Assembly: GCA_965216325.1 (NCBI GenBank)
Contig: OZ244160.1
Coordinates: 320,001-384,000, forward strand
Length of the DNA: 64,000 nucleotides
Reading direction: 5' to 3'
Source: Coraliomargarita sp.
Lineage (GTDB): Bacteria; Verrucomicrobiota; Verrucomicrobiia; Opitutales; Coraliomargaritaceae
Within the stretch, counting starts at the first letter, position 1. Every line of letters begins with the position of its first letter. A program made the position numbers. Below, piece by piece: positions 25,632-31,600 of this stretch.

Positions 25632-28600
25632 GTCTCCGCCATTTCCAACACCCGCAGCAATGTGGGTTTTTTAATAGTACTACCCATGGAAGAAACACTT
25701 ATCATCCTAAAGCCTGACTGCATGGAGAAGCGCATTGCGGGCGAAGTCATTTCACGCTTTGAAAAAGCTGGTTTCGATATCGTTGCCTCCAAGGTGATGC
25801 AACTCGATGGCCCAATCCTCCGTGAGCACTACGCGCACGTTGCGGATAAGCCGTTCTTCCCTGAGATCGAGGCATTCATGAGCTCTTGCCCGGTGATGCC
25901 AATGATACTTCGTGGCGACGGTGTGATTGCTAAGGTGCGTGATCTCCTCGGCCCAACGAACTCTCAAGAAGCGCCAGCAGGCACCATTCGCGGTGATCTG
26001 GGCACTGATATGATGCGCAATGTGGTGCATGCTTCGGACGGTCCGGAAACTGCAGCTGCTGAGAAGAAGCGCTTCTTCCCTGAGCTCTAAGCTGTGAAGG
26101 TTAAAACCGGCCTCGGACTTGACAGCCACCGTTTCGTTGAAGGCGAGGCGGATAAGGCGTTTGTGTTGGGCGGCTTGGTTTTTGACGACGTGCCGGCTCT
26201 GGCTGGCAATAGCGATGCAGATGTGATTCTGCATGCGCTGACTGATGCGATCAGTGGGGTTACTGGTCGCACTGTAATCGGTGCTGTTGCGGACGAGATG
26301 TGTCAGCGCGGCATTACCGATAGCAAAGAATACCTTAAAGTTGCCCTCGAAGATTTGGGCGACTGGCAACTCAGTCACGTGTCGATTGCGCTAGAGTGCA
26401 AGCGCCCGAAAATTGACCCGAAAGTGCCGGCTCTGCGCGAATCCATTGCCGGTTTGCTTGGCCTGACGGTGGATGCCGTCTGTATCACGGCAACTACCGG
26501 CGAGAAGCTCAACGATGTCGGCCGCGGGCTTGGCATCCATGCGACTGTCATTGTGACGGCGGTTCAGGTCTAGGTGTGAAAGTGAACTCAGCTTTCGCGT
26601 ATTCGCGGAGAGTCGAGAAGTGCACCTTTAGAGCTTTTATCTATTTTTACACTTGTAAGGGGGGGCGCAGAGTTTGCCATGCGGTGTATAACTACTACCG
26701 ATTGTATGTCGTGGTGGTTTTTTAACAAATAAACAACACACTATGAAAACAAAAATTACTCTGGCATCCGCATTGATGGCGGTTTCCGGTTTCGTGAACG
26801 CTGAGATCGTTGTTAACGATTTCCTCTCGTTCGAGGGGTTTGTGGATATGTCTTATTCACATACTGATATTGATTCGGACTCTGCTGCTATTGGGAGTGG
26901 ATCCGATAACAGCTTTGGTATTGATCAGGTTGAAATCGTTTGGTTGTTCGATTTTGATAAGGTTACTGCTCAGATTGACCTCGAATATGAAGAGGCTGGT
27001 GACGACATGGAAGTCGAGCAGGCATTTGTGACGTATCACTTTGATAATGGTGGTGCGATTACTGCTGGGCGCTTTGCGTCCATGCTCGGGTTCGAAGCCT
27101 TTGAGCCCACTGGCCTCTAGCAGTATTCCTTTGCGTATGATTACGGCATCCTTCCTGGTTATGCGCAGGGTGTGAAGTTTACGCACGAGTCTGATAACAG
27201 CTTCTTTGGAGTTTCTCTCCTCGATAGCTACACCGAGTTTGATGGCTATGATGGTCGTCTTGGCGGTTCGGGCGATTCCAATTGGGCAGTCGAATTGGCT
27301 GGTGCTTACTATCTGGAAAATGGACTCTCGTTCTTCCTCGGTGGCTACTATGAAGATGCAGAAGGTCCATCTCTTGAAGGAGAAACATATGCAGTAAATG
27401 CATACGTAACTTACGAAACGGGTGCGTGGATTTTTGCGGCCGAAGTTAATTTTGGTAATTCTGAAACTGGTGCTTATTCTACTCTTACCTCGGGAGTCGA
27501 TGATGATGCCGTGTCTGGTTTGCTTATGGCAAACTATGCGTATAGTGAGCAAGGTTCGATCACAGGTCGTATTAGTTATGAGACATTCGATTGGGATAAC
27601 CCATTCGAAGATGAGTTAGAGCAAATCAAGTATACGCTCGCACACAATTGGGCCTTCACTGATAACCTATCTCTTGTTGCTGAAGTCAGCTTCGCAGATG
27701 CCGACTTTGATGCAACAGACGCATTTGATGGAGATTTCGAGGTGTTGACTGGAGCAATTGAATTGCTCTTCGCATTCTAGTCTAATTCTTATTAGAAACG
27801 AATTTAAAGCTCCTCGGTTCCGGCCGAGGAGCTTTTTTTGTGTGCGCCCGGCAGGGCGCACTTACTCGACAGTGATTATTAATGGAAATTGATGAAAGTC
27901 TGTTACTCGCCCGGCAAGGGGAAGAGTTAGCCGAAGGGCAACTGCGGCATCGCGAGGTGTTCGTGGGAAGGAAGCCTATGGCAAAGCACTGGCCTGACGA
28001 ACAGGAATCGCATAAGAGGCGTTTGCGTTGGATGAGGAGGCACAGAACTTCAAAGTCCGAAACTTGCCCGGAAAGCGCAGGCGTATATGCGGCAGGCATA
28101 AGTGTGACGGTAAGTGCGCATTACCCGGGGAGGTCTCTGAACATGCTACTGGCTACCAGTGTCGCGAGGCACTGGGATGTGTTTAGAGAAGTCAGCCGAG
28201 ATCATAGTAGCCTGCACAGGTCGCGGGCGAAGGATCGAACCGAAGAACGACAACAAGGACTGAGACCATGAGCGAGAGCAGGGAAGCAGAAGCTGGCGGC
28301 ACCACCCGTCAGACCCGCGTGGAAGGAACCGGACGGCATCTGGGGCGAGTCCATGCGGGCGCATCAAGCGCGCCATCGGCCTTGGAGACCAAACTGAAGC
28401 TGAAGGTCAACCACCTCAAAAGCGCGGTGGATCGTCCGAGCCGCCGGATCTTCCTCGGCTACAGCTTCACTGGGGGCAAGCATAGCCGCATTCGCGTGCC
28501 CAAACAGACGACTCAAAAGATGAAGTCCAAGCTGCGGAAACTCTGCCGCAAAGGGCGCGGGCGCAACCTGCGCCGCTTCATCGCTGAGACGCTCAATCCA

Positions 28601-31600
28601 GTGCTACGCGGCTGGACGAACTACTTCCGCCTGAGTCAGACGAAAACCTTCGCCGGGGAACTGGACGAATGGTTGCGACATCGCTTGCGGTGCATCCTCT
28701 GGCGACAGTGGAAACGTCCCCACACCCGCTACAGGAAGCTGGTGCAGCTTGGGCTCAGCCCCGAATGTGCCCGCAAAAGCAGCTACAACGGACGCGGGGC
28801 GTGGTTTAACAGCGGAGCCTCTCACATGAACCAAGCCCTCCCACGCAAAGCCTTCACGCAAATGAAGCTCCTATCTGTCTATGATTTGCTCGAATTGATG
28901 AGAGCCGAAATCCTTCTTCGGAACCGCCGTGATACGTGAACCGTACGTCCGGTGGTGTGAGAGCTTGGAGCGGGCAACCGCTCCCGGCTACTCGATATCT
29001 GCGTTTCTGCAGATGCTAGTTGCCGATAGCAAAATGGAGGGCAACCCTCCGTCCTTGCCATAACCTAGTGGTTGGCGGCAACGACGGAGCATTGCCCTCC
29101 ATCTAAACCAAATTTCCTCTCGCGCTTAGAGCCTATCCGCCGATCAGCCCCATGGTTTTGAGGAGGCTGGAAGTGTAGGGGATCAGCTGTTTCTTGCGGC
29201 TGACGATGCCCGGCATCTCATAGATGTGTTCGTAGGTCTTCTGTGGGTAGTTGATTTGGCTCTTTAGGTCCTCATTGCCAGCAACCACGAGTAAGGAGTC
29301 CTGGGTATTGATGTCGGTCACCAGTAGGAAGCTGAACAGGAGTTCTTCTTGATCGCGATAGCTCTCTAAGGCTGCGCTCAGTGCATCTTGATTGCTCCAG
29401 AAATTGTTGAAGCCCAGTTCTTCGATCTGAGCGACGGAATAACTAATGTCTCCATCCTCACGATAGATTTTACAGTCTGAAGTGACGACCTGTTCCGGCG
29501 GAAGGTTTACAATCACCGAGCCCGAAGAGAAGATCAGTTCTGCAAGCGCTTCTGCCTTGATGCCGGCGATCGGGGCCAGCCAGTCAAGCAGTTCGCCCTC
29601 AAGTGGCGTGGTCGTCGGGCTGTTCAGTAGAAGCGTGTCAGAAATGATTCCGGCCATCAGCACGCCCGCAATGCCTGGCTCAGGTGTCAGGCTTTGTGCG
29701 CGGAACAGGTCTGCGACAATCGAGCAGGTGGAGCCTACAGGGCGGTTGATAAACAGAATTGGCTGTTCACTGGGGATATTGCCCAAGCGGTGGTGGTCGA
29801 GGATCTCAGTAATTTGCACTTCATCTGCACCTGTGACTGCTTGTCCCAGTTCGTTGTGGTCGACGAGTGCGATACGTGTTGTGCTTGGGCGTAGGATGTC
29901 ACTCTTCGAGAAAACACCGAGCAATTCACGGTTATCATTGACCACCATGTAGAGGGGGTCGTTAAGGTGCGCTATTCGGCTTTTGACAGAACTGATCCGA
30001 TCTTCCGGAGTGAAGCATTTCACATCGGGATCGATTAGGCGTTCAATGTGAGTGGCGGTGCGGATGATCCAAGACGTAGTTGCCGAATCAAACGGGCTGA
30101 CAATTAAAGAGACGCCTTGCTTCTTCGCGCGCTCGACCACTTCGGGTTCGACGTCGAGGGCGCCGGTGATCACCAGTAGGCGCACGCCCAATTGTAAACA
30201 GCGTTCTTGGATGTCCCAGCGATCTCCAACAATGATGATGCTTTGCTTCGCGGAGGTGCCTTCTTCCTTGTGATGTTGACCAAAGGAGCGAATATCCATC
30301 GCACCAATTCGCACATAGAGTTCCTCTAGAGAGTCCTCGTTCACCAAGTTGAGCACTTTGGCATTCAGCGAGCGAATGATCGCGGAAACCGTTGTGTGCA
30401 CGCGGCGCATGTCACGCGGGGCACGTGGTTTGGGAATGAAGGATTCACCAAGGTCGAAAATGGAAATGGTGCCCTCGAGCTTATTCTTGTCGTCGACTAC
30501 AGGTAGGGCACGCACATCATATTCGTCGATGAGTTCAAGTGCTTCGGCACAGGTATTCGCTTTGGTTACGGTTTGCACGGTGCGCGTCATGATGTCCTCG
30601 ATTCGAGGCGTTACGTCACCAATAAACTTTGGTAGCGGGAGATCAAAGCGTTCTAATATTGCATCCACCCGTGCATTTGAGTTGCCGCAACGGGCTGCGA
30701 CGTAATGTGTTTCACCTATGGCGTGCTTGTAGGCTTCGTAAGCGATTGCAGAGCAGATGGCATCTGCGTCTGGGTTCTTGTGGCCTAGGATATAGATCGG
30801 GTCTGGCATGGTGACGATTAGCGATATAGAAAAGGGAACCCTAGCTAACGCAGAATTCCGCAGACCTTCAAAGGTTATTTTATCGTGAAATCCACAAAAA
30901 GGCACAAAAAAGCCGACTACATCAGTAGTCGGCTTGGCTTATGTAAATTTGAAGCTGCTACTAATTACTCGCAGTTGGAGCGAGCTTGATATTCGCAGAG
31001 TCGTGAATCTTGGTGATGTCGTCGGTCAGCAGTCCATTACTTGGATCAACGAGTTGGCCATCATCGCCTTTCAAGTCGTTGTAAAATGAGACGTGACCAT
31101 CAAGGAATGCAATGTGGCCGCCGCGCCCCCAAGGGGTCGTTTTGCCCCATACGCCAACTGCACCTTCGCTGAGGCCACGTGTCCATGTGAGTGGGGTGGT
31201 TGATGCTGGATCATTGCCGCCTGCCGCAAGTGCAAAGTCATAGCCTACTGGAGCATCTGACGACCAGTCAGGAGATGTCTGGAATGCGTTATCGGCGTCT
31301 CTGTATCCAATTACCTCGGGGATGGTCTTGCCTTCGTTCTCGTAGTCGGTGACTAGCGGGTCTGTTCCAATGAGCCAAATAGACGCATCGGTAAGGTCGA
31401 CCTTATCTGCGAGGAACTCGGCAACACCCTGAACGCTATCTGTATAGCCTGCGTTGGTTAGCTTTGTAGATGTGAGCACCTTTACTTTACCACCAGACGT
31501 TGAGTAAGTCGCATAAGAGACAGCAATCGAACGAATGTTCGCAGAGGACTTCATCTTGTTGGCCACTTCTCGGACCTTGCCAACAGCAGGAATAAGGATC

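Follow-up and report, generated by a model that had tools for sequence, protein, structure and literature searches.

As far as PMC4424553 describes them, ORF-less introns of bacteria occur nearly always in genomes that also contain related introns, the possible source of an IEP acting in trans. In the ORF-less TeI3 of Thermosynechococcus elongatus, according to the account of Mohr, Ghanem and Lambowitz 2010 (PMC2882425), domain IV has lost the RT coding sequence through an internal deletion that has the same breakpoints in all derivatives and leaves N- and C-terminal remnants of the ORF; the derivatives lie at many sites and are mobilised in trans by the IEP of the full-length relatives beside them. 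The IIC (class C) introns B.h.I1, GsI-IIC and that of E. rectale are characterised, in the description given by PMC1702495, by an IEP without the En domain, a CGC in place of AGC in domain V (DV), a distal DV stem shorter by 2 bp, an AGGAA bulge, a 4-bp IBS1-EBS1 pairing and insertion after terminator stem-loops. The intron described here, from a Coraliomargarita genome of which a window of 64,000 nucleotides was analysed, resembles TeI3 in its deletion, breakpoints, ORF remnants and neighbouring full-length relatives, and the IIC introns in the features listed. The kind of element, an RT-deleted intron beside intact relatives, is already known.

Copies of the intron and ribozyme anatomy

The host genome (3.06 Mb, Puniceicoccaceae) contains one group IIC intron as six full and four short copies (Table 1), and all ten are 99.5–100% identical to one another. 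When a full copy is searched against the entire genome with blastn, the full copies are recovered at 1916 bp each and 99.5–99.8% identity to the query, while each short copy (1157–1158 bp) aligns to the query as two pieces with an identical junction. Multiple alignment places the deletion at copy positions 543–1301, a loss of 759 bp or 253 codons that is in frame and common to all four short copies. Much of what an earlier note on this DNA had claimed is borne out: the six full and four short copies with one junction (blastn and multiple alignment), the in-frame 759-bp deletion that takes away the RT domain and keeps the ribozyme, ORF start and GIIM (alignment, Rfam and Pfam), the presence of the short form at four different terminators, and the terminator-targeting class C identity, since all five IIC features tested are present. 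The end of copy S2, given there as 1639978, is corrected to 1639980 (its 3' end).

The short form does not stem from misassembly: in Logan unitigs from two runs on this organism, the junction-specific unitig is covered 4.2 times (X3) and 3.0 times (X1) as deeply as the unique flanks, and the arms of the intron 10–10.5 times (X3) and 7.5–8.9 times (X1). An intact 476-aa ORF with YADD is present in five of the six full copies. It matches Pfam RVT_1 (residues 113–319) and GIIM (336–411), and sequence comparison with PDB 6ar1 and 7uim places the IEP closest to the GsI-IIC RT (449.5 bits) and the 7uim IIC maturase (357 bits). The RT/maturase of these five copies could act in trans.

Copy S1, the short copy in the window, retains all parts of the ribozyme, namely D1–D3, the base of domain IV with the first 114 nt of the ORF, DV and DVI. 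Rfam group-II-D1D4-3 matches at 27946–28119 (129.7 bits), a span that includes the IIC-type AGGAA bulge, and group-II-D1D4-1 at 28153–28235 (67.2 bits). DV has the CGC triad and a distal stem 2 bp below the consensus length; DVI carries a GCAA loop and, at 28990, a bulged A as putative branch point, and the Rfam match to both domains stops exactly at the last intron nucleotide. Pairing of CCGAAGAA with TTCTTCGG would form the basal stem of domain IV, within which both the ORF and the deletion are located.

Table 1. Features of intron copy S1 in window coordinates, with the copies of the family in contig coordinates
Feature	Position	Strand	Evidence
Intrinsic terminator of upstream porin-like (pseudo)gene	27806..27839	+	terminator scan
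IBS1 (TTGT), final 4 nt of 5' exon	27838..27841	+	TTGT directly 5' of GTGCG in 10/10 copies
Short (RT-deleted) group IIC intron S1	27842..28996	+	1155 nt, GTGCG to ...CTACTCGAT; blastn, alignment, Rfam, covariation boundary
Ribozyme domains I–III	27946..28235	+	Rfam full-length model matches
EBS1 (ACAG)	28042..28045	+	8-nt loop GCACAGAA of D1 hairpin; loop position from Rfam alignment
Domain IV basal stem (putative), 5' strand CCGAAGAA	28240..28247	+	complement TTCTTCGG at 28914–28921; read from sequence
Remnant IEP ORF, 223 aa	28268..28939	+	ORF list; Pfam GIIM residues 83–158, E = 3.4e-21
Deletion junction, single remaining TTGGAGA	28382..28388	+	junction sequences of full vs short copies; unitig depth 3.0–4.2x flanks
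Domains V + VI	28922..28996	+	Rfam RF00029, model positions 1–77 of 77, 30.1 bits (below the gathering score of 40), E = 0.0012
First 3' exon nucleotide, IBS3 candidate	28997..28997	+	purine in 10/10 copies (4 A, 6 G)
Full copies, starts	1096168, 1142405, 1321291(-), 1370894(-), 2235866, 2598912		blastn
Short copies	347840 (S1 = window 27840–28996), 1639980–1641137(-) (S2), 2696475, 2977974		blastn

Target site and splice boundaries

The terminator upstream of S1 consists of a 13-bp stem-loop (27806–27835) overlapping a run of seven T (27833–27839), and its 40-nt MFE of -22.4 ranks within the bottom 0.1% of 2000 40-mers drawn at random from the genome. This terminator is the structured DNA target of the intron. 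A hairpin with 5–7 T precedes all ten copies, as had been noted before, and the 40-nt MFE values (-15.8 to -26.0, compared with -7.6, sd 3.5, for the background) confirm it; each copy lies behind a different intrinsic terminator. The flanking sequences had been called unrelated, but S1, F5 and F3 have paralogous genes upstream, 69–78% identical at the nucleotide level. S1 itself sits in an intergenic spacer, with no host gene in need of splicing.

EBS1 ACAG forms three Watson-Crick pairs and one G-U pair with IBS1 UUGU. Relatives carry the EBS1/IBS1 combinations ACAG/TTGT, CAAG/TTTG, CTAG/TTAG, CACG/TGTG, CAAT/ATTG and others, and over 14 distinct combinations a mean of 3.36 of the 4 positions pair, compared with 1.95 (sd 0.25) after shuffling, a value that none of 10000 shuffles reaches. 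This covariation makes the GT at 27840, where the intron had earlier been thought to start, a part of IBS1, and the true 5' splice site GTGCG lies 2 nt inward at 27842. All four short copies follow the target rule of the family, a hairpin, TTGT and a purine. Eight of the ten copies are co-oriented with the GC skew, and F1 and F2 lie 11–57 kb past a skew switch; the co-orientation fits the lagging-strand bias that PMC8919778, in the part concerned with class C introns, reports for them.

The shared deletion and the genealogy of the copies

The reading we favour, with a probability of about one half, is that 27842–28996 is a non-autonomous copy, its deletion having arisen once and spread, likely with RT supplied in trans, together with recombination between copies. 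A full-length copy would have lost 759 bp of its domain-IV ORF on one occasion, by a microhomology-mediated deletion between TTGGAGA heptamers. The short RNA should still fold and recognise the same target, the terminator hairpin followed by UUGU (IBS1 with EBS1 ACAG) and a purine, but would be unable to make a reverse transcriptase of its own. It most likely multiplied to the four terminator sites as an RNP with the 476-aa RT/maturase from the five intact copies, which would reverse-splice into single-stranded terminator DNA at the replication fork like other IIC introns, and exchanges between short and full copies, through homologous recombination or gene conversion, would also have scrambled their genealogy. 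The single junction in four copies at four terminators, the ribozyme parts kept in the short copy, the target rule obeyed by every short copy and the intact IEP in most full copies support this reading, and its recombination part is supported by a related family in which recombination is directly visible (genome G042, see below). The company that ORF-less introns keep according to PMC4424553 and the orientation of the copies relative to the GC skew also agree with it.

The 7-bp direct repeat TTGGAGA borders the deletion at full-intron copy positions 543–549 and 1302–1308, and the loss comprises IEP residues ~41–293, with RT motifs 0–6, most of motif 7 and the YADD catalytic motif. It is conceivable that the RT jumped repeatedly from the downstream to the upstream heptamer during cDNA synthesis, so that F5-type, F4-type and ancestral donors each yielded short daughters and the short element need not move itself. 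Microhomology at the junction agrees with such jumps, and template switching is known for group II intron RTs from what PMC3683930 and PMC8363836 say of it. However, the same heptamer pair would have been used at least three times, although the ORF offers 124 direct 7-mer pairs, this one included, and 39 8-mer pairs. A partition-function fold of the full intron RNA yields no pair with p > 0.05 between positions 500–600 and 1250–1350, so no predicted structure joins the two sites. Moreover, the deletions of related introns differ in extent and junction, with 522 bp missing at metagenome locus L034, 552 bp at L029, ~1300 bp at L040, and 304 and 464 bp in G042, and the junction sequence of the present deletion has no match in the metagenome collection searched. 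With many repeat pairs, no fold that brings the sites together and other junctions in relatives, the junction is not marked as a hot spot, and identity by descent is therefore the simplest reading of the shared deletion; we regard its recurrence as distinctly improbable.

The SNPs complicate this reading. Outside the deletion, S1 and S4 match F5 with 0 differences, and S3 departs from F4 by a single change. When the G020 intron, which is 83% identical, serves as outgroup, derived 1691C is common to F3, F5, S1 and S4, and the derived nonsense mutation 1779T is common to F4 and S3. The multiple alignment of the ten copies contains no SNP private to the four short ones, which do not form a clade. 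By the four-gamete test the deletion is incompatible with both derived SNPs, and it is the sole character in conflict, the informative full-copy SNPs (538/825, 1120/1691, 1595) being mutually compatible; the assignment of SNPs to single copies among ten near-identical repeats hinges on assembly quality. To resolve the conflict, one must assume that copies recombined, that gene conversion spread the deletion, or that the deletion recurred; if it had a single origin, short and full copies must have recombined or converted one another at least twice. The earlier claim that the deletion arose once and then moved is thus plausible from one junction at four terminators but not established, given the missing private SNPs, the lack of a clade and the four-gamete conflict. 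That the conflict is limited to the deletion tells against the favoured reading, since recurrent deletion from different full-length donors gives the same pattern, each short copy attaching beside a specific full copy in an otherwise tree-like genealogy.

A single deletion followed by pure trans-mobilisation, as the earlier note proposed, would require that the conflicting SNPs be parallel hot-spot mutations or consensus errors of assembly or polishing. Both sites lie in copies of the 8-mer CACGCAAA, the three occurrences of which (1690, 1762, 1775) hint at a context effect; SNPs within 1.2–1.9-kb repeats are the hardest positions to assign, and among the unitigs listed the one at 1691 bears the majority allele only. 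Nevertheless, we estimate the chance of two exact coincidences by random mutation at < 1e-3 (~10 variable sites per 1157 shared positions), one of the two changes is a transversion while the other creates a stop codon, and both sites are at most 225 nt from the unique 3' flank, in which paired reads can be anchored. Mobility in trans without recombination is therefore very unlikely.

Once recombination is admitted, gene conversion explains the pattern without trans-mobilisation. The deletion would have arisen once and spread by homologous recombination into resident full copies, the first colonists being F5-type at S1 and S4, F4-type at S3 and ancestral-type at S2, and arms of 542 bp and ~400–600 bp on either side would have allowed the central part to be swapped for the deleted allele. 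Such events account directly for the (near-)identity of each short copy with a particular full copy outside the deletion and for the absence of private SNPs. They also have a parallel in the related IIC intron of G042, an uncultured Verrucomicrobiae, in which one common internal 304-bp deletion is present in four copies at four different terminators, beside six full copies. The copies there are mosaic, full copies included; the deletion occurs on two haplotype backgrounds 7–8% apart, with diagnostic differences down to 11 nt from the junction, and the 3' 409 nt differ by only 0–1% among copies. Unlike in Coraliomargarita, the G042 junction lies elsewhere and out of frame, the RT7/X border is removed rather than RT0–7, and the copies have diverged by up to 8%, recombination being unmistakable there. 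In the present family, by contrast, no reverse or full-to-full conversion is visible, the informative SNPs of the full copies being compatible. Three conversions would be needed, each moving a 759-bp heterology yet ending before 1691 or 1779, and trans-mobilisation of ORF-deleted introns has experimental precedent in the system treated in PMC2882425. We consider spread by gene conversion instead of mobility unlikely, and prefer a single deletion with mobility in trans and recombination between copies.

The remnant reading frame and known systems

The S1 ORF fuses 40 N-terminal residues to residues 294–476 of the full protein, and its stop codon lies within the DV loop. Its residues 35–204 align to residues 242–410 of the GsI-IIC RT. 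The short form had been called maturase-only, which is right in that Pfam finds GIIM only in the 223-aa ORF, but the end of the RT, the thumb/X domain and the C-terminal domain are all retained, and the short-copy ORFs (223, 205, 118 and 223 aa) are intact in S1 and S4 and broken in S2 by a +1 frameshift and in S3 by two stop codons. Because two of the four are broken, the maturase-only character is probably incidental; related deletion derivatives elsewhere lack other segments, part of X among them.

It has also to be considered that the 223-aa thumb/X and C-terminal protein is selected, either because it helps splicing or because it competes with the full IEP for intron RNA, in which case the in-frame deletion would matter. 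The frame is kept here and in two independent metagenome derivatives (L034 and L029) with open ORFs, and S1 and S4, identical and so the youngest short copies, have the ORF intact. The breaks in S2 and S3 speak against selection, as does the fact that just three of the five internal deletions found are in frame: the 304-bp and 464-bp deletions of G042 are out of frame, and the 304-bp form has still reached four copies. Furthermore, the intron lies in no host gene that needs splicing, and the LtrA maturase reportedly requires both its RT and X domains (Cui et al. 2004, by title). Selection for the protein thus appears highly improbable, and the remnant is most likely a by-product and not a working maturase.

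A comparable loss is seen in introns with degenerate, RT-inactive IEPs such as MatK of the chloroplast trnK-I1, which, in the account of PMC4424553, has likewise lost RT motifs and kept the X/thumb region in an open frame. However, as described there, MatK has long been conserved and acts for introns located in essential genes, whereas the S1-type ORF is days old in evolutionary terms and broken in half of its copies, and the intron lies in an intergenic spacer and suffered its loss by one clean deletion, not by gradual decay. Unlike the IIC introns described before, S1 is without the RT domain and cannot be autonomous. In T. elongatus, as far as PMC2882425 reports, the deletion is ~1.5 kb long with a frame-disrupting extra U, the derivative has 17 copies, and intron phylogeny supports a single early deletion, whereas here the short copies form no clade. 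The Coraliomargarita intron differs from TeI3 in being a terminator-targeting IIC intron with a 759-bp in-frame deletion, only four copies and >99.5% identity.

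Intron copies, class assignment and target sites

The genome is a single contig of 3,064,510 bases, in which a blastn search with a full copy as the query reveals six full copies of the intron (F1 to F6, 1916 bp) and four short ones (S1 to S4). Each short copy aligns in two pieces, and the junction is identical in all four and located at the heptamer TTGGAGA. Blastn and alignment thus confirm an earlier note, which had claimed six full and four short copies, the latter with one common in-frame deletion of 759 bp. Divergence among the ten copies is at most 0.5%, with 18 variable columns in the multiple alignment when the deletion block is excluded. 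The four best sequencing runs come from one organism and one study, and two of them (X1 and X3) were analysed as Logan unitigs. Relative to unique flanks, the depth of the junction-specific unitig is 4.2x in X3 and 3.0x in X1, while that of the intron arms is 10–10.5x and 7.5–8.9x, respectively. On these depths the short form is genuine. The S1 site is occupied in both runs, and an intron-free join across it is absent from the unitigs of both. Coordinates of the features are collected in the table below.

Features of the window, the genome and the intron copies (copy positions are numbered along the full intron)
Feature	Location	Size or score	Remarks
Porin-like gene family, four members	window 26743–27780; genome 2233432–2234523, 2234717–2235805, 1323268–1324503(-)
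group-II-D1D4-3	window 27946–28119	129.7 bits	Rfam
group-II-D1D4-1	window 28153–28235	67.2 bits	Rfam
DV–DVI	ends exactly at window 28996	30.1 bits	RF00029 model positions 1–77 of 77; under gathering score 40, found at laxer thresholds
Remnant ORF	window 28268–28939	223 aa	Pfam GIIM only, E = 3.4e-21
TTGGAGA, single survivor of the direct repeat bounding the deletion	window 28382–28388		junction comparison
Deletion	copy positions 543–1301	759 bp = 253 codons	alignment
S1 and S4 ORF		223 aa	intact
S2 ORF		205 aa	+1 C frameshift
S3 ORF		118 aa	TAC>TAG at 1544 plus CAA>TAA at 1779
F4 ORF		450 aa	same 1779 stop as S3
ORF of the five other full copies		476 aa	intact
Further RT families	genome 550890–556663, 2274533–2275726, 2763446–2764639, 2846865–2852711		tblastn
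Five tRNA genes, ordinary	window 2212–2298, 11417–11487, 25375–25445, 25551–25638, 31915–31989		Rfam

The 476-aa intron-encoded protein (IEP) matches TIGR04416 with 408.7 bits and contains RVT_1 at residues 113–319, GIIM at 336–411 and no other Pfam domain. Absence of an endonuclease domain and comparison with solved structures place it in the class C RT lineage. Its closest solved relatives are all IIC (GsI-IIC RT, 449.5 bits; 7uim, 357; 5hhl and 5hhj, 271 and 268.5), and matches to other structures are much weaker (6me0, 128.8; LtrA, 118.4), which we take to be IIB and IIA, respectively. The IEP is most closely related to proteins of an uncultured Puniceicoccaceae bin (84%) and of Pelagicoccus (77%), which places the host in the Puniceicoccaceae. 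PMC1702495 lists among the traits of IIC introns a DV whose triad is CGC instead of AGC and whose distal stem is shorter by 2 bp, and an AGGAA bulge in domain I. In the RF00029 alignment (30.1 bits, gathering score 40), DV reads AACCGCCG opposite the consensus gaGAGCCG, with two 2-nt gaps in the distal stem, and in the RF02001 alignment the bulge is present as GUGGGAAGGAAGCC opposite UCUGAAGGAAgcc. Judged by these alignments, window 27840–28996 holds the complete set of group II ribozyme parts. One full copy, F2, has a double change CG>AA in domain VI (genome 1144309–1144310, copy positions 1905–1906) which, as read from the sequence, creates two U-A pairs where other copies have a U-G pair and a U/C mismatch, and looks compensatory or stabilising.

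All ten copies read T-run, GT, GTGCG; related introns read T-run, G, GTGCG or have different short spacers. The four nucleotides preceding GTGCG covary with a tetramer in an 8-nt hairpin loop of D1 (ACAG, window 28042–28045), giving the IBS1/EBS1 pairs TTGT/ACAG, TTTG/CAAG, TTAG/CTAG, TGTG/CACG and ATTG/CAAT across relatives. Covariation was scored on 31 5' ends, 48 more without the loop search motif being left out. The 14 distinct exon/loop combinations form on average 3.36 of 4 pairs, against 1.95 (sd 0.25) when shuffled, and none of 10000 shuffles scored as high. This covariation indicates that the intron begins at GTGCG (window 27842), with TTGT (27838–27841) as IBS1 and ACAG as EBS1, and the start formerly placed at 27840 is moved to 27842. 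The pairing of TTGT with ACAG is short, within the 3–4 bp of IIC introns. Introns of this class lack an EBS2–IBS2 pairing and recognise the 3' exon through IBS3–EBS3; in the present family the first base of the 3' exon is a purine in every copy. For the clade, the covariation provides a target rule consisting of a hairpin, a 4-nt IBS1 and an intron start at GUGCG. Outside the window, a 5' relic of a related intron, about 110 nt long (genome 490290–490403; a 116-bp blastn match at 490290, 92% identity) has its own terminator upstream, is of the TTTG-then-GTGCG type as in G020, another genome with a related intron, and ends after about position 110.

A stable hairpin with 5–7 T is located upstream of each of the ten copies. 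The 40-nt MFE ranges from -15.8 to -26.0, which places each hairpin among the lowest 2% of 2000 40-mers drawn at random from the genome. A genome-wide scan gives 271 terminators whose strength equals or exceeds that of the weakest one occupied, and these include the terminators of all ten copies. The position of every copy directly behind a hairpin and T-run, claimed earlier, is thus borne out, and so is the description as a class C-like, terminator-targeting intron, on the IEP relatives, DV, the AGGAA bulge, the terminator position and the IBS1–EBS1 pairing. GT directly follows the T-run in 104 of the 271 strong terminators (38%), far above a rough composition estimate of about 6%, and in 72 of those 104 a purine comes next; free targets therefore look plentiful. 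The IBS1 of the intron (UUGU) fits the commonest terminator tail in the genome. When the 300-nt stretches behind all 271 strong terminators were clustered, no real repeat emerged besides this intron family; a second cluster, of six, derives from the full-length copies, inside which a terminator-like site is located on the opposite strand. Two further families of group II intron-type RT are present in the genome by tblastn, with five copies (43% identity to the IEP) and two copies (38%), plus fragments, and none of them is located behind the 271 terminators scanned.

The earlier note had also called the flanks unrelated. This stands for the downstream flanks. The genes upstream of S1, F5 and F3 are paralogous and 69–78% identical, and these are the only related flanks. 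On this comparison, duplication of flanks by recombination is rejected as the source of the copies. These three copies are located directly behind the terminators of three of the four porin-like genes, while the fourth gene has a free terminator followed by GTGTGT. Given 10 occupied terminators among 271, the hypergeometric probability of at least three of four is 1.4e-4, a post hoc value. In the porin-like gene that precedes S1, a TAG in frame (window 27118–27120) takes the place of a Tyr conserved in the three paralogs (TGL*QYSFAYD against TGLYQ[FY]S), and this gene is probably a pseudogene.

The remnant protein

The short protein consists of the 40 N-terminal residues of the IEP followed by a stretch matching residues 242–410 of GsI-IIC RT, and it also aligns to 248–418 of the 7uim maturase. 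It therefore retains the end of the RT domain, the thumb/X region and the C-terminal domain. ORF inspection and Pfam agree with the ORF sizes given previously for the short copies (223, 223, 205 and 118 aa) and with the GIIM-only content of the 223-aa ORF. Loss of the RT motifs with retention of domain X, as observed by Pfam and in the alignment to GsI-IIC RT, is a MatK-like feature. However, a protein of MatK type would be a selected ORF inside a host gene requiring splicing, and the S1 intron is located between a terminator and a convergent gene, with the ORF broken in two of the four short copies. Because of these broken ORFs, and because other derivatives remove other parts and only three of five deletions are in-frame, the remnant protein is probably incidental. 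By the title of a study on LtrA cited in PMC4424553, both RT and X domains are reportedly required for maturase activity, which argues in the same direction.

An in-frame bias, reflecting selection for translation of domain IV or for the remnant protein, was considered and dropped, as deletions of 304 bp and 464 bp in G042, an uncultured Verrucomicrobiae chromosome, are out of frame. The in-frame deletions with an open ORF are the present one and those at two further loci, L034 and L029, a proportion which is not significant. A search for short homologues matched 1481 proteins of 122–391 aa at E <= 1e-10, and most of the 120 matches listed are on contigs of a few kb or less. Among the eight inspected, the same fusion was not seen; all look like ORF calls truncated at the N terminus or like different deletion forms.

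Genealogy of the deletion and proposed spread of the short form

It had been proposed that the deletion arose once and that the short intron then moved. The identical junction in all four short copies supports this, but the remaining variation does not fit it simply, as the alignment contains no SNP private to the short copies. Taking the 83% intron of G020 as the outgroup, 1691C is derived and common to F3, F5, S1 and S4, so that all three copies behind porin-like genes have it, and the nonsense change 1779T is derived and common to F4 and S3. S1 and S4 are each identical to F5 minus the deletion, and S3 differs by one change from F4 without the deleted segment. The deletion fails the four-gamete test against both sites, while the informative SNPs of the full copies are mutually compatible. 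The derivative copies thus do not behave as a single lineage, although with only two informative sites the test is weak. By our estimate, the probability that parallel mutations hit two of the roughly 10 variable sites (among 1157 positions) by chance is <1e-3. Both 1691 and 1779 are located inside copies of an 8-mer, CACGCAAA, of which the 3' portion of the ORF contains three (copy positions 1690, 1762 and 1775; window about 28770, 28842 and 28855). This may be an effect of mutational context or chance.

One way to explain the conflict is that the deletion recurs: the reverse transcriptase would jump each time from one TTGGAGA heptamer to the other, each short copy would arise afresh from a different full donor (F5-type twice, F4-type and an ancestral type), and the short copies would not propagate themselves. 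The donors match the shared SNPs, but we consider this reading improbable. The ORF contains 124 direct 7-mer pairs, the heptamer pair among them, and 39 8-mer pairs. An RNA structure joining the heptamers finds no support: no pair with p > 0.05 is predicted between 500–600 and 1250–1350, which is weak evidence as folding of a 1.9-kb RNA is unreliable. Use of one pair out of 124, the lack of predicted pairing and the different junctions of relatives argue for a single origin. The junction sequence itself has no match in the metagenome contigs, a collection from which near-identical records may be missing. If recurrence were nevertheless true, four of the ten present copies would have been born without RT, a large share of new insertions, and the retroelement would have a built-in, sequence-specified way to shed its own RT gene.

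The G042 chromosome offers an independent replicate. Its related IIC family (69%, 1910 nt) comprises six full copies, four copies which have one 304-bp deletion (1198–1501) in common and are located behind four different terminators, and two copies with a 464-bp deletion. Segment 735–1197 falls into two haplogroups 7–8% apart, both of which bear the same 304-bp junction, while the 3' 409 nt differ by only 0–1%, and the full copies are mosaic too. This pattern shows that recombination or gene conversion among copies is common in this lineage, which makes recurrent deletion less likely than either of two readings with one deletion. In one of these, gene conversion carried the deletion into full copies already resident at their sites. 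In the other, which we favour at a probability of about 0.5, the short form was mobilised in trans, and short and full copies exchanged sequence at least twice. The G042 pattern raises the likelihood of both and does not separate them. Some G042 introns are arranged in head-to-tail pairs, inserted directly after the 3' end of another copy (...GGCTACCCGAT; L139 and L141, at G042:C1:242361–246310 and 1538036–1543827), and further copies there (L146, L140 and L149) have insertions of 1.4–2 kb.

The short RNA retains all catalytic domains and, of DIV, the base together with the first 114 nt of the ORF. Under trans-mobilisation with exchange, the full copies would supply the 476-aa IEP that binds, splices and carries this RNA, which would reverse-splice into single-stranded terminator DNA bearing UUGU. 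A complete ribozyme, a cognate open ORF of 476 aa in five of six full copies (450 aa in F4) and identical breakpoints in all four short copies are what a trans-mobilised intron is expected to have. Supply in trans is further favoured by experimental precedent in T. elongatus (PMC2882425). Eight of the ten copies are co-oriented with GC skew and the other two are located just past a skew switch, a pattern confounded by gene orientation which fits the lagging-strand bias of class C introns as described in PMC8919778. The curve of cumulative GC skew climbs between 0 and 1.085 Mb, declines until 1.805 Mb and climbs again to the end, and F1 and F2 adjoin the 1.085-Mb switch. Should the switches mark the origin and terminus, the arms would be of very different length (about 0.72 and 2.34 Mb).

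Related introns and known systems

The intron was not found in any of the three same-genus genomes searched (76–99% complete), and within the host family only G020 has a full copy (83%). Deletions with different junctions occur in relatives on metagenome contigs (522 bp in L034, 552 bp in L029 and about 1300 bp in L040) as well as in G042, which is a second, older example from another Verrucomicrobiae genome. The two genomes together show that RT-deleted derivatives arise repeatedly in this lineage. Our literature search on IIC cases, of partial coverage, found no naturally RT-deleted IIC family, and we do not claim that none has been reported. The present family is a very young IIC example, with both partners in one genome.

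The kind itself, an ORF-deleted intron dependent on the IEP of a relative, is already known. According to a 2015 review (PMC4424553), bacteria rarely have group II introns that are ORF-less or RT-degenerate, and T. elongatus is the best-studied case and a model for intron proliferation and dependence on a common splicing apparatus. The ORF-deleted, trans-mobilised introns of the TeI3 type resemble the present one in their common breakpoints, complete ribozyme and intact partner IEP. In contrast, the single lineage of derivatives of the TeI3 type has no clear counterpart here, as the short copies lack a private SNP. Because copies exchange sequence, a common breakpoint alone is no proof that a short form has proliferated, and this caveat extends to similar inferences elsewhere.
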